From an uncultured delta proteobacterium (GTDB taxonomy: Bacteria; Myxococcota_A; Polyangia; Polyangiales; B10-G4): DNA of 64,000 bases. Position numbers: made by a program. The stretch's first letter is position 1; each line of letters starts with the position of its first letter. Positions 12,001 through 15,000 of the stretch are shown here, in pieces. The stretch spans positions 1 to 64,000 of the forward strand of contig CAVSGI010000009.1 of NCBI GenBank assembly GCA_963727445.1, read 5' to 3'.

Positions 12001-15000
12001 GCGCCCGAGGAGGTCGAGCGCCTCTCGCCCCTCGACGCCTCCGAGCACTACCTCGCGCACCTGCGCGCCGCCTGGGACCAGAAGCACCCCGAGGCGCCGC
12101 TCTCTCAACAGGACGTCACCATCACGGTCCCCGCTTCGTTCGATCCGGCGGCGCGCGAGCTCACCGCCGAGGCCGCGCGCCGCGCCGGCTACGAGCGCCT
12201 GACGCTCCTCGAGGAGCCGCAGGCGGCGCTCTACAGCTGGATCCAGCGGAGCGGCGGCGACTGGCGAGAGCAGGTCTCGGTCGGCGACGTGATCCTGGTG
12301 ATCGACCTCGGCGGCGGCACCGCCGACTTCTCGCTCATCACCGTTCAAGAGGAGGAGGGCGCGCTCACCCTCGAGCGCATCGCGGTCGGCGATCACATCC
12401 TCCTCGGCGGCGACAACATGGACCTCGCGCTCGCCCATACGGTGCGCATGAAGCTCGAGGCCGAGGGCAAGAGCCTCGACGACTGGCAGCTCCGCGCGCT
12501 GACCCACGGCTGTCGCGCGGCGAAGGAGAAGCTCCTCGGCGACGGCGAGGAGACCGAGGTCCCCATCGTCGTGCCGAGTCGCGGGAGCAAGCTGGTCGGC
12601 GGCTCGCTCCGCACCGAGCTCACCCGCGACGAGGTGAAGAAGGTGATCCTCGATGGCTTCTTTCCGGTCGTCGGCCGCGAGGAAGGCCCCAAGTCGCGGG
12701 GCCGCGCCGCGCTCACGCAGCTCGGCCTGCCCTACGCCCACGACGCCGGCATCACGCGTCACCTCGCCGCCTTCCTCGGCCGTCAGGCCGGCGCCATCGA
12801 GGGCAGCGGCGAGTTCGCGCGCCCCACGGCGGTCCTCTTCAACGGCGGCGTCTTCAAGTCGAAGATCCTCCGCGACCGCATCCTGTCGGTGCTCAACAGC
12901 TGGCTGATCACGGCGGGCGCCAAGCCCGCGCGCATCCTCGAAGGCGCCGACCTCGACCTCGCCTGCGCCCGCGGCGCCGCGTACTACGGCTACGTGCTCC
13001 GCGGCGGCGGCGTGCGCATCCGCGGCGGCACCGCCAAGTCCTTCTACGTCGGCGTCGAAGCCGCGATGCCGGCCGTTCCCGGCATGGAGCCTCCGCTCTC
13101 CGCGCTCTGCCTGGCGCCCTTCGGACTCGAAGAGGGGAGCGAGGCCGGCTCCCCGGAGCAGCCCTTCGGCCTGGTGGTGGGCGAGCCGGTGCGCTTCCGC
13201 TTCTTCGGCTCCTCCGTGCGCCGCGACGACCACGTGGGCACCGTGCTCTCGCGCTGGAACGAAGGCGAGCTCGAAGAGCTCGACGAGCTCGAGGCGACGC
13301 TCCCGGCCGAGGGCCGCACGCCGGGGGAGGTGGTCCCCGTCTTTCTGCGCGCGCGCGTCACCGAGGTCGGAACGCTCGAGCTCGAGGCCATCCCGCGCAG
13401 CGGCGGCGCGCCGTGGGGCGTGGAGTTCGACGTTCGCGGCGGCGACTGAGGACTGGCGCCGATCGTTCGCGACGCGCCTGTTGCTCCAGCGCCACAGCGG
13501 CCTCTGGCGGCTTCGCCAGACGCCACCCATCGAGTGGTCGCACCCCGAGAGGATTGGGCTTTCCGCGGACGCGTCGCGGGCGCGCATCTTGCTGCCCCGA
13601 CGGGCGTGAAACGCTCTCTTCTCTTGTCGCTGCTCATCGTGGCCGGCTGCGCCGTCTCCACCGATACAGGCACGGCGGGTGATCCCGCCCTCGGTCCCGC
13701 GGACGATCCCTCCTCCGCGACGGATACACCGCCCCCCGAGAGCGAGCCCTTCCTGCCCAGCGTCCCCCGAGGCTGCGTCCTGTCGTCGCCCGCCGGTCCG
13801 ACGACCGAGGCCGGCTTCGATCATCTGACGAGCGGGCTCTTCGGCAGAGCGCGTCACGAGCTCAGCGAGCCGGTCGTCACCCTCGGCGAGAACGTCTCGC
13901 TCGAAGCGCGCTTTCGCTACGGCCTGACGAGCAAGGATCTCGAAGACGAAGAGGTCGTCGCCTACGTTCGCCTCGAAGCTTGCGGCGAGTGGACGGAGGT
14001 CGCCGATCTTCGCACCGACGACGATGGGATGATCTTCGTCGACCTCGACCCGGGGCTCTTCCCGGAGGTCGGCGCCTACGAGGTGGAGATCGTGGCGCTC
14101 GGCGACCTGTCCCGCGCGCGGGGTCGCATCTACGTCGTGCCCGCGGAGCAGAAGGCCGTGGTCTTCGACATCGACGGCACCCTCACCACGAGCGACTCGC
14201 AGCTCTTCACCGAGCTCTACCAGGGCACTCCCGCCGAGATGTACGAGGGCGCGCCCGACGTCGCCTGGCTCTACGCGGAAGCCGGCTACCTCATCGTCTA
14301 CCTCACCGGTCGCCCCCACATGCTCCAGGACATGAGCCGCACCTGGCTCGAGGACAATCACTTCCCCGTGGGCCCCGTGATCACCAGCGACAATCTTCTC
14401 GAGTCGACCGGGCCCCTGGTCGAACAGCACAAGCGCGAGCACCTGGCGCTTCTCGAGGGCGAGGGGATCACCTTCGCGCGTGCCTACGGGAACGCGACCA
14501 CGGACATCTGCGCCTACGCCAAGTCGGAGATCGATCCCGCCCAGACCTTCATCATCGGCACCCACGGCGGCGAGGCCTGTGACGACACCGACTACGCGCC
14601 GACCGTCGCGGTGGAGAGCTATCCCGCGCATCTCGCGTCGGTCGATCCCCTTCCTGCCACCTGGGAGTGAGTCGAGCCTTGCATTCGGCGCGTTCGGGCC
14701 CCATCAAAAGCCCATGAGCGATATCTACGACATCGAGGTCGAGACCCTCGCTGGCGAGAAGCGGAAGATGGACGCCTATCGCGGCAAGGCCTTGCTAATC
14801 GTCAACGTCGCGAGCAAATGCGGGTTCACGCCGCAGTACGAGGGACTGCAAGAGCTCTACGACGAGTACCACGACCGCGGCTTCGAGATTCTGGGCTTCC
14901 CGTGCAATCAGTTCGGCGCCCAGGAGCCCGGGACGGCCGAGGAGATCGGCTCCTTCTGCCAGAAGAACTACGGCGTCAGCTTCCCCATGCACGCCAAGAT

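Follow-up and report, generated by a model that had tools for sequence, protein, structure and literature searches.

A predicted myxobacterial lipoprotein related to the Nir2/RdgB C-terminal module and retaining a full set of HAD catalytic residues

The C-terminal end of animal Nir2/RdgB proteins combines an Ig-like domain with a HAD-type LNS2 domain. As far as the available text of three reports goes, the LNS2 domain of Nir is regarded as a pseudoenzyme, with lipin as its sole comparison (PMC12419160, PMC12582312, bioRxiv 10.64898/2026.06.03.729928). The Ig loop of Nir2 inserts into the membrane (PMC12582312), and Nir2 and the lipin Pah2 both act on phosphatidic acid (PA) at membranes (PMC12582312, PMC12657724). 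The lipin Ig domain is reported in sections of two papers to be built from N-Lip and C-Lip, and an N-terminal amphipathic helix is required for membrane binding (PMC7066176; PMC12657724); cap 1 of Pah2 is described as facing the membrane (PMC12657724).

Outside the cytoplasm, excerpted accounts give two further precedents. GRA38 of Toxoplasma represents a secreted PA phosphatase (PMC12711892), and class C acid phosphatases, which include lipid-anchored HAD enzymes acting on nucleotides, dephosphorylate their substrates outside the cytoplasm (PMC8475336). Lipid genes common to myxobacteria and eukaryotes also have a precedent in plasmalogen synthesis, as outlined in part of PMC13012113.

A predicted exported and membrane-anchored enzyme is widespread among myxobacteria and their relatives. 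It is close to the lipid-sensing end of Nir2/RdgB, keeps the catalytic residues and may show what the sensor evolved from. One cultured carrier of the family is Anaeromyxobacter terrae SG22. Our literature searches found no paper on this bacterial family. Its members are already labelled automatically as LNS2/PAH1 in databases, and the domains themselves are known.

The gene, its paralogue and the predicted export signal

The window, meaning the whole analysed stretch of 64,000 nucleotides, contains the gene under study and the following N-terminal and cysteine features.

13606..14670, + strand: gene for a predicted lipoprotein of 354 residues with Ig-like and HAD (LNS2, Nir-type) domains and a GTG start, from the open reading frame and Pfam.
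13606..13650, + strand: signal peptide with lipobox, in which Cys15 (13648-13650) is the predicted lipid anchor, from the sequence, the alignment column and a heuristic compared with shuffles.
13651..13773, + strand: low-complexity tether rich in Pro, Asp and Thr (residues 16-56), from the model and alignment.
13774 and 13981, + strand: second cysteine pair, Cys57 and Cys126, from residue co-occurrence.
14509..14580, + strand: Cys302/Cys325 pair, a probable disulfide, from residue co-occurrence.

The public gene call (P0002, 378 residues) starts 72 nt upstream of the GTG at 13606, and because of this more distant start the signal peptide is hidden inside it. The 354-residue protein matched PF24695 at residues 82-172 (E 1.8e-10) and PF24694 at residues 185-318 (E 5.2e-30), each above the curated cut-off. 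Two paralogues had been proposed for this genome, and both open reading frames were found: the only PF24694 matches in the whole genome were this gene and C15:191251-192135, with 42% identity over 265 aligned residues. No Pfam match to DDHD, FFAT or PITP was found in the protein. Fusion to any of these three was likewise absent from the five longer bacterial forms found, a weak test for the family at large. A scan of five proteins returned no NCBIfam family at cut-off, and no sigma-70-like promoter was found in 13300-15400.

The N-terminus carries a basic-hydrophobic signal ending in VAG-C15, and cysteine occupied the Cys15 column in 101 of 120 aligned rows. By a heuristic, a lipobox was present in 147 of 201 full-length homologues, while shuffled N-termini gave a mean of 9.3 and a maximum of 17; the other N-termini were hydrophobic without a lipobox (41) or neither (13). 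The protein is thus predicted with high confidence to be a lipoprotein, and secretion of the family is inferred from such N-terminal signals. The model showed the tether as unstructured (pLDDT 48-62 across residues 1-40), and its length differed between homologues.

Among 238 sequences, Cys302 and Cys325 were both present in 135 and both absent in 102, with one discordant case, and they probably form a disulfide. Cys57 and Cys126 occurred together in 196, were both missing in 21 and were discordant in 21; cross pairs between the two cysteine pairs were uncoupled. The lipobox enrichment and the co-occurring cysteine pairs fit a predicted extracytoplasmic location.

Likeness to Nir2 and the catalytic motifs

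The first-pass annotation had named the human PITPNM1 C-terminal module as the best PDB match. Its E-values (2.6e-23 for 9JTZ and about 1e-4 for Pah2) were reproduced, but the species was not: 9JTZ contains mouse Nir2, residues 910-1190, according to a portion of PMC12582312. The claim that the protein stands far nearer to Nir2 than to lipin Pah2 held. The family profile gave E 3.4e-61 for Nir2 versus 1e-18 for Pah2, and the predicted model matched Nir2 (9JZP) with Z 30.6 at 2.0 A over 252 residues in both domains, versus Z 20-21 for Pah2 and Z of at most 16 for every other HAD protein listed. The protein is truly homologous to the Nir/RdgB C-terminal module over the full extent of the latter. 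The domain and motif features are as follows.

13813..13857, + strand: pre-Ig segment (residues 70-84) with an aromatic residue, a short helix and a conserved His84, homologous to the segment preceding the Nir Ig domain.
13849..14121, + strand: Ig-like beta-sandwich (PF24695) with a YG-xxx-KDL loop, from Pfam, the model and the structure match.
14167..14196, + strand: HAD motif I, D188-I-D190-G-T192, plus D197 (equivalent to the Mg ligand D155 of Pah2), from alignments and PMC12657724.
14197..14226, + strand: cap-1 amphipathic helix (residues 198-207), one face hydrophobic and the other acidic, missing in Nir.
14305..14313, + strand: HAD motif II, T234-G-R236 (Nir2 T1065; Pah2 R193), from alignment.
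14431..14433, + strand: HAD motif III, K276 (Nir2 K1103; Pah2 K244), from alignment.
14488..14505, + strand: HAD motif IV, G295-N296-A297-T-T299-D300, from alignments, PMC12657724 and PMC12582312.

In the pre-Ig segment, Trp or Phe was found at position 71 in 223 of 264 sequences and His84 in 247 of 264, and eukaryotic Nir loci were alike. The YG-xxx-KDL loop aligned with the membrane-inserting loop of Nir2, L943 of which corresponds to L107, and column 108 held V, I, L, F or M in 160 of 264. The cap-1 region formed a helix at residues 199-206 in the model; its hydrophobic moment exceeded that of shuffled sequences in 41 of 51 cases, and longer cap-1 variants gained extra hydrophobic residues.

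All four HAD superfamily motifs were present in the protein (D188, D190 and T192; T234; K276; N296 and D300), with the core fold as modelled. The 264 similarity-selected sequences contained DxDxT in 262, Asp at the D197 column in 242, T/S and R of motif II in all 264 and K of motif III in 263. Motif counts from the contig scan were excluded, since that scan had used the motif as its query. As had been claimed, DxDxT is kept here, unlike the FSIDGS of Nir2, where Ser replaces the nucleophile and the equivalent of position 197 is not Asp. DxDGT had been read in all 13 loci where the pattern applied, leaving 7 of 20 unread; this gap is now closed, since all 19 full-length genes in genome G000 and its relatives read DxDGT.

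A search by the Ig domain only, which gave 60 loci, found the four motifs intact in 50; the ten exceptions were decayed copies from a single bacterial family (f33). Together with Nir, this means that catalysis was lost at least twice in the fold, which would suit a protein that, like Nir2, binds phospholipid or phosphate but turns it over very slowly or not at all, with the motifs kept for binding metal and phosphate. We regard such a binder as very improbable, since members down to 18% identity jointly keep the nucleophile, the acid/base Asp and every Mg ligand, and the dead copies lose them jointly. An active Mg-dependent phosphatase is strongly favoured by the motif conservation. The earlier suggestions of a probably active phosphatase and of an enzymatic relative of the animal sensor may now be put more strongly, because motifs II-IV and D197 are also kept and the fold agrees with Nir2 at 2.0 A over both domains.

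Distribution, gene context and candidate substrates

The family was found in 9 of 40 relatives, as had been counted before. The statement that it often occurs in 2-4 copies stood for five of the nine after open reading frames were resolved, but four matches in one relative (G005) came down to two genes and a fragment. In a wider sample of 301 phylum genomes, G000 among them, 62 had PF24695, as against none of 14 control genomes. Viral homologues were found at four loci and covered the HAD core only. Three homologues were fused to a PF01663 phosphodiesterase, possibly through a single event, and one to an M23 peptidase domain.

Flanking open reading frames from 82 loci were clustered all against all, and a family open reading frame passed the filter in 75. 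A conserved operon was rejected, as the neighbouring genes were not conserved and the largest neighbour family occurred in 8 loci. A Pfam scan of 137 of the 165 adjacent candidates found no family beyond a few loci, and no lipid-metabolism neighbour recurred among the 75 loci. The gene at 13606-14670 lies between an upstream Hsp70-like gene and a downstream glutathione peroxidase gene. Since neither is among the recurring neighbours, the gene was treated as stand-alone.

The determinants of PA recognition were compared by alignment. Nir2 binds PA through K1126 and a basic concave surface, whereas the bacterial protein is acidic. The Nir2 set S1025, T1065, K1103 and K1126 corresponds to D188, T234, K276 and T299 (two of four kept), and the basic docking residues R1074, R1149 and K1150 correspond to Met243, Gly322 and Glu323. 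The core had a net charge of about -31, versus +1 to +8 in ten Nir modules, which argues against docking on anionic membranes; one other member of the bacterial family (P0230) is basic. At the site of the lipin PA-recognition residue Arg269, the protein has A297; across 264 sequences this column was Ala in 238 cases and Arg in 4, and it held A 35, T 7, K 4, R 3 and S 1 in the Ig-selected set (n = 50). Because the lipin Arg, the Nir2 Lys and the basic patch are all absent, PA as the specific substrate is doubtful.

These missing determinants and the acidic surface would also agree with a phosphatase of broad specificity, located at the surface or in the periplasm, that acts on soluble phosphomonoesters (nucleotides and the phosphates of sugars or glycerol), filling the class C role on another scaffold with a structural Ig domain. 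PF01663 enzymes act on nucleotides too, and the fusions to this nucleotide pyrophosphatase/phosphodiesterase family point the same way, as do the phosphoesterase or sulfatase families at 6 of 137 adjacent open reading frames (one of these below cut-off). Lipid-anchored HAD nucleotide phosphatases exist, as noted above for class C. However, the class C family PF03767 scored 17.5 bits against a cut-off of 27, class B AphA matched the HAD core only (Z about 12), the cap helix is hydrophobic, and the Ig-HAD interface and loop are conserved with two membrane-acting families. We consider a soluble substrate unlikely, though a real competitor.

A nearly cap-less phosphatase acting in the envelope or outside the cell on a macromolecule appears quite improbable; its substrates might be nucleic acids with 3'-phosphates, phosphoproteins, or glycans or lipid A in phosphorylated form. 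Cap-less HAD enzymes often act on macromolecules according to part of PMC12657724, T4 polynucleotide kinase 3'-phosphatase followed lipin in the ranking of structural matches (Z 15-16), and the M23 fusion would fit. The T4 match covers the HAD core alone, however; the strongly acidic surface disfavours nucleic acids, and no partner linked to glycans, lipid A or protein kinases was identified as a conserved neighbour (75 loci; 137 adjacent open reading frames).

The hydrophobic cap helix of the model and the Ig loop favour a lipid phosphomonoester, as does the action of Nir2 and Pah2, the two nearest relatives that have been characterised, on PA at membranes. The PF01663 fusions would fit a relay of diesterase followed by monoesterase. 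Whether the substrate is a lipid is evenly balanced in our judgement. The same even confidence applies to the full reading, a stand-alone, exported and lipid-anchored Mg2+-dependent HAD phosphomonoesterase of LNS2 type, acting at the membrane surface on PA, lyso-PA or a related ether or sphingoid lipid phosphate.

For this lipid phosphatase, the lipobox suggests that export would be followed by acylation at Cys15, and the 40-residue tether may let the two-domain head rest on the membrane. Contact would be made by the Ig loop and the cap-1 helix instead of a Nir2-type basic patch. With chemistry modelled on lipin Pah2, the Mg site would be set by D188, N296, D197 and D300; D188 would attack the phosphorus, T234 and K276 would hold the phosphate, and D190 would serve as acid/base. 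The products, phosphate and a neutral lipid, might help the cell to scavenge from prey or detritus or to turn over the lipids of its envelope.

Origin of the Nir module and comparison with known systems

Eukaryotic Nir modules grouped with the bacterial family (support 100/99) in trees that contained no lipin or unicellular-eukaryote Nir, with App1 rows dropped for low coverage. A lipin-motif scan of viral contigs gave no match, and length-extended searches for a lipin outgroup yielded no eukaryotic protein. A quick tree of 71 rows suggested that Nir is nested in bacteria; on the same set, the tree constrained to bacterial monophyly gained 33.9 log-likelihood units (p-AU 0.93). A careful tree kept 47 rows, after removal of 24 that were long, redundant or compositionally unusual. 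In its best topology, Nir branched within the bacterial family next to P0199 (68/88), and bacteria were monophyletic in 0% of 200 bootstrap trees. Enforcing bacterial monophyly cost 8.3 log-likelihood units (p-AU 0.28), so that a sister relationship is not rejected; nesting is therefore not claimed. Other bacterial members had 35-39% identity to Nir, versus 25-33% for the 354-residue protein, which by sequence lies outside the group nearest Nir; P0199 and P0155 are two Nir-proximal members. A single-sequence model of P0155 gave no usable fold (pLDDT 36).

A bolder reading, which we hold to be somewhat less likely than not, is that the animal Nir/RdgB PA sensor is a domesticated myxobacterial exported lipid phosphatase and not a dead duplicate of eukaryotic lipin. 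After gene transfer, it would have lost the signal peptide and cap-1 helix, been fused behind PITP and DDHD domains, had two Mg ligands inactivated, and gained a new Lys and a basic surface. If this is true, the bacterial proteins would join lipin and App1 as a third family of Mg-dependent lipid phosphatases, one that works outside the cytoplasm. They offer a small, single-chain natural model for the change from phosphatase to PA sensor and add a candidate to the lipid genes common to myxobacteria and eukaryotes. If the substrate is a lipid, they would represent an undescribed extracytoplasmic lipid-phosphatase activity in predatory or scavenging bacteria.

App1-type PA phosphatases (PF09949), including GRA38, are likewise HAD DxDxT enzymes. 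PF09949 scored 16.8 bits on the protein, below the cut-off of 27.1; three separate matches to PF09949 exist in the genome. Class C acid phosphatases (e(P4), OlpA, HppA) share the HAD fold and the lipoprotein form, for which the anchor at Cys15 is predicted here, but they have a DDDD motif type, whereas motif IV of this protein is GNxxxD (GNATTD). Class C enzymes are not known to contain an Ig domain.

In lipin/Pah proteins (Tt Pah2, PDB 6TZY, 7LHK, 9D13-9D16), too, an Ig-like domain packs against a HAD domain that carries DxDxT, and Pah2 D146, D148, D155, R193, K244, N268 and D272 each have a counterpart. The differences are an identity of about 20% and the absence here of the signature Arg269 and of Gly158 (Leu200 in this protein); lipins are also eukaryotic, intracellular enzymes. 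PF04571 (N-Lip) gave no match to the protein, and the model has a short helix at 74-77 ahead of the Ig domain.

The Nir2/PITPNM1 (RdgB) module (mouse PDB 9JTZ, 9JZ1 and 9JZP) shares a continuous Ig and HAD unit at 31% identity. Common to both are the pre-Ig segment, the YG loop and a C-terminal Y-x-x-H-L helix, and D1027 and D1127 match D190 and D300 just as T1065 and K1103 match T234 and K276. Nir is cytosolic and placed behind PITP and DDHD domains, whereas the bacterial protein stands alone and is probably exported and lipid-anchored. Nir is also a pseudoenzyme in which Ser replaces both the nucleophile and the Asn of motif IV and the cap-1 helix is missing, in contrast to the full catalytic set of the bacterial protein. 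The bacterial family is much closer to Nir LNS2 than lipin is, and it appears catalytically complete. The Nir module is a catalytically dead, cap-less and cytosolic form of the bacterial Ig and HAD unit.

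Gene, export signal and neighbourhood

The gene and its immediate neighbours occupy the following positions of the window.

11629-13449: Hsp70-like protein, upstream of the studied gene
13606-14670, + strand: studied gene, ORF of 354 residues with a GTG start
14714-17975: glutathione peroxidase, gluconate-2-dehydrogenase subunit-3 protein and GMC oxidoreductase, downstream of the studied gene

Position 13606 is a better start than the one in the public annotation (P0002, 378 aa), which begins at an upstream GTG and whose extension (13534-13605) masks the signal peptide. The N-terminal sequence consists of a basic-hydrophobic signal up to VAG-C15, followed by a Pro/Asp/Thr-rich tether. 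In the Pfam search, residues 82-172 matched the Nir beta-sandwich PF24695 (E 1.8e-10) and residues 185-318 the Nir LNS2 domain PF24694 (E 5.2e-30). Lipin LNS2 PF08235 matched more weakly (E 1.3e-14), and the APP1 and acid-phosphatase Pfam models stayed below the cut-off on this protein. The single paralogue in the genome (C15:191251-192135, 42% identity) also carries a lipobox. The ORF, signal, both domains and second paralogue described in the first-pass annotation were all recovered.

N-terminus classes were assigned by our own heuristic, against the background of the lipobox rules, with shuffled N-termini as the control. A lipobox was present in 147 of 201 full-length homologues, compared to a shuffled mean of 9.3; 41 had another hydrophobic N-terminus and 13 had neither. 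Two Cys pairs co-occur (Cys302/Cys325: both in 135, neither in 102 and discordant in 1, n=238), and cross pairs are uncoupled. The behaviour of the two pairs in the alignment is consistent with disulfides.

Clustering of flanking ORFs and a Pfam scan of adjacent ORFs found no conserved neighbour genes around homologous loci, and neither the Hsp70-like nor the downstream genes recurred beside homologues in the flanking-ORF clustering. At about 19900-24600 of the window, ORFs resembling an acyltransferase, acyl-carrier protein, methyltransferase, AMP-binding enzyme and asparagine-synthetase-like protein were seen by eye, which suggests a small biosynthetic cluster.

Likeness to Nir2 and catalytic residues

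The whole module is closely homologous to Nir and, judged by profile and structure, lies nearer to Nir than to lipin. A family profile built from 118 homologues matched Nir2 with E 3.4e-61 (profile positions 62-336) and the lipin-type phosphatidic acid (PA) phosphatase Pah2 with E 1e-18 (137-331). Superposed on Nir2, the AlphaFold model of the studied protein (mean pLDDT 89) had TM-scores of 0.86-0.89 (target-normalised) and Z 30.6 (2.0 A, 252 residues), compared to Z 20-21 for Pah2 and <=16 for other HAD proteins. The values given in the first-pass annotation for its best PDB match were reproduced, although the entry, 9JTZ, is mouse Nir2 910-1190 and not the human protein (PMC12582312).

Eukaryotic sequences were sought by scanning metagenomes for the Nir motif, and 56 of the 57 loci obtained matched the bacterial profile. 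Ten of the 57 had an intron-free span of the whole module; these were taken as Nir/RdgB because a DDHD domain lay upstream in all five tested. Nir modules shared 35-39% identity with their best bacterial matches (homologues P0155, P0171, P0199, L169 and L098) and only 25-33% with the studied protein; P0199 matched 9JTZ at E 4.9e-34. The pre-Ig segment is also alike in the bacterial family and Nir, running from an aromatic residue through basic residues to G-x-N-H-R. Furthermore, the top three ESM Atlas results for one Nir module were bacterial clusters of the Nir-like family (0.92-0.93).

Residue numbering of Nir2 and Pah2 was taken from published papers and from profile and structure-database alignments. 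Every Pah2 catalytic residue named in PMC12657724 is retained in the alignment: D188 and D190 (D146 and D148 in Pah2), D197 (D155), R236 (R193), K276 (K244), N296 (N268) and D300 (D272). In Nir2, Ser replaces both the nucleophile and the motif IV Asn, and the D155 equivalent is missing, whereas the studied protein keeps all three.

DxDxT was present in 262 of 264 similarity-selected homologues. This set is biased towards the motif; therefore, a second sample was drawn through the Ig domain only, with 60 loci hand-picked from the 94 PF24695 matches listed and its second batch purposely weighted towards f33, the family in which decayed copies occur. All four HAD motifs were intact in 35 of 40 loci in the first batch and 50 of 60 overall, and all ten exceptions belong to f33. 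Four genomes of genus g66 within f33 (G045, G056, G066 and G087) carry one copy of each kind, intact and decayed. Because the motifs are intact both in the studied protein and in homologues sampled through the Ig domain only, the protein is very likely to be enzymatically active. The catalytic set and the Ig-only sample thus bear out, as a prediction, the probable phosphatase activity proposed earlier, and the description as an enzymatic relative of the animal sensor was sound, given the homology of the whole module.

The decayed f33 copies (L187, L191, L193, L198, L202 and L303-L307, in genomes G045, G056, G061, G066, G076, G087, G117, G161, G240 and G305) have lost the HAD motifs and retained the Ig domain, together with the signal peptide in those inspected. 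In one of them the nucleophile position is occupied by Ser, the residue that Nir has there. This loss looks independent of Nir, since L187 stood apart from Nir in a quick tree.

Evidence on the substrate

The substrate evidence is mixed. Arg269 of Pah2 is required for PA and not for pNPP (PMC12657724). The corresponding position is Ala297 in the studied protein, with Ala in 238 and Arg in 4 of 264 homologues. In the alignment, the PA-binding K1126 of Nir2 corresponds to Thr299, and the docking residues R1074, R1149 and K1150 to Met243, Gly322 and Glu323. The core net charge is near -31, among the most acidic of the family (median -11), and ten Nir modules range from +1 to +8. PA as the substrate is disfavoured by these replacements and the acidic core.

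In favour of a lipid substrate, both of the closest families that have been characterised have PA as their target at membranes, the Ig loop retains a hydrophobic residue and the cap-1 helix is amphipathic. Column 108 of this loop, the equivalent of the Nir2 membrane-inserting loop, is hydrophobic (V/I/L/F/M) in 160 of 264 homologues. The helix formed by the cap-1 insert has a hydrophobic moment of 0.43, compared to 0.33 after shuffling, and exceeds the shuffled value in 41 of 51 sequences; its longer variants bring extra hydrophobic residues. As a membrane sign this is suggestive only, since packing on protein would also account for it. For a lipid substrate, a covalent lipid anchor might stand in for the basic patch of Nir2 and the N-terminal helix of lipin.

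PF01663 enzymes act on a range of substrates, including nucleotides. A PF01663 phosphodiesterase is fused to the module in three homologues (P0235, P0246 and L245, at L245:916-3417), which fits a diester-then-monoester relay on lipid or nucleotide equally. Other fusions involve an M23 peptidase, an amino-acid permease and QueG (P0224, P0245 and P0247); the permease and QueG fusions may be gene-calling read-throughs.

G-N-R in motif IV, with the lipin Arg, was seen in the Nir-like members L008, L009, L017, L185, L317 and L318, which from their sequences would be the members to choose first for assays with PA. Two highly divergent tandem paralogues (L010 and L022, G017:C4:57683-59922) and a similar third (L021, G017:C5) have G-D for G-N in motif IV. 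The App1-type phosphatidate-phosphatase domain PF09949 also matches the source genome at three places (L205-L207; G000:C10:205316-205783, C10:132800-133237 and C18:78332-78736).

Distribution, descent and comparison with known systems

The reported occurrence in 9 of 40 relatives was confirmed, with 2-4 genes in five of the nine once ORFs were resolved, and DxDGT was kept in all 19 full-length genes of the source genome and matching relatives. Within the window's phylum, 62 of 301 genomes had PF24695, compared to none of 14 controls. Of the 301 loci found, the 80 named ones that were kept came mostly from Myxococcota or Deltaproteobacteria assemblies, alongside three Bacteriovoracia, two Planctomycetota, one Gammaproteobacteria-labelled and one Alphaproteobacteria-labelled record. 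Myxobacteria have predatory or scavenging habits.

Strong PF24694 matches (E <1e-20) occurred in 2 of 201 genomes in the phylum of G329, a Bacteriovoracia record, and 4 of 201 in that of G330, a Planctomycetota record, counts that include G329 and G330 themselves, picked for having the gene. Both phyla also harbour a more distant Ig + HAD group, the tree outgroup. Its members (L216-L221 and L247-L272) are exported Ig + HAD proteins and are candidate bacterial PA phosphatases because the lipin PA-recognition position is Arg in 5 and Lys in 7 of 24.

The careful tree had 47 rows and 275 columns, and its bootstrap had not settled completely. It recovered Nir as monophyletic (100/100) and joined it to the bacterial family to the exclusion of the sister group (100/99). 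None of 200 bootstrap trees (0%) kept the bacteria monophyletic, and in the best tree Nir adjoined P0199 at only 68/88. On the careful tree, the AU test did not reject a position of Nir as sister to the whole set of bacterial members (p 0.28), and in the larger quick tree this constrained arrangement outscored the free one. The trees are compatible with Nir nested in bacteria or sister to them and do not fix a direction of descent. Neither tree includes a lipin or App1 sequence, and the scan caught SIDGS-type Nir sequences only, so that protist forms with an intact motif would escape it. Plasmalogen synthesis is a precedent for lipid-gene transfer from Myxococcota to eukaryotes (PMC13012113).

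The family is already visible in databases, since JGI lists certain members as 'phosphatidate phosphatase PAH1' or 'LNS2' and ESM Atlas clusters bear Pfam names. A full-text literature search, with subscription journals mostly outside its reach, found no paper dealing with LNS2 proteins of the Nir type in bacteria. The string 'bacteri' has 0 occurrences in the main texts of PMC12582312, PMC12419160, PMC12657724, PMC7066176 and a 2026 Nir1-Nir2 preprint (bioRxiv 10.64898/2026.06.03.729928).

The studied protein has the build of a Nir LNS2 module and the predicted function of a HAD phosphatase of the lipin/App1 type. The absence of a DDHD domain, a PITP domain and a SIDGS motif places it outside Nir, and the absence of the lipin Arg places it outside lipin. 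Class C acid phosphatases are not known to have an Ig domain. Their location (PMC8475336) is like that predicted here, but the family is not matched. The studied protein is probably an active, exported and uncharacterised bacterial counterpart of the Nir/RdgB sensor module.
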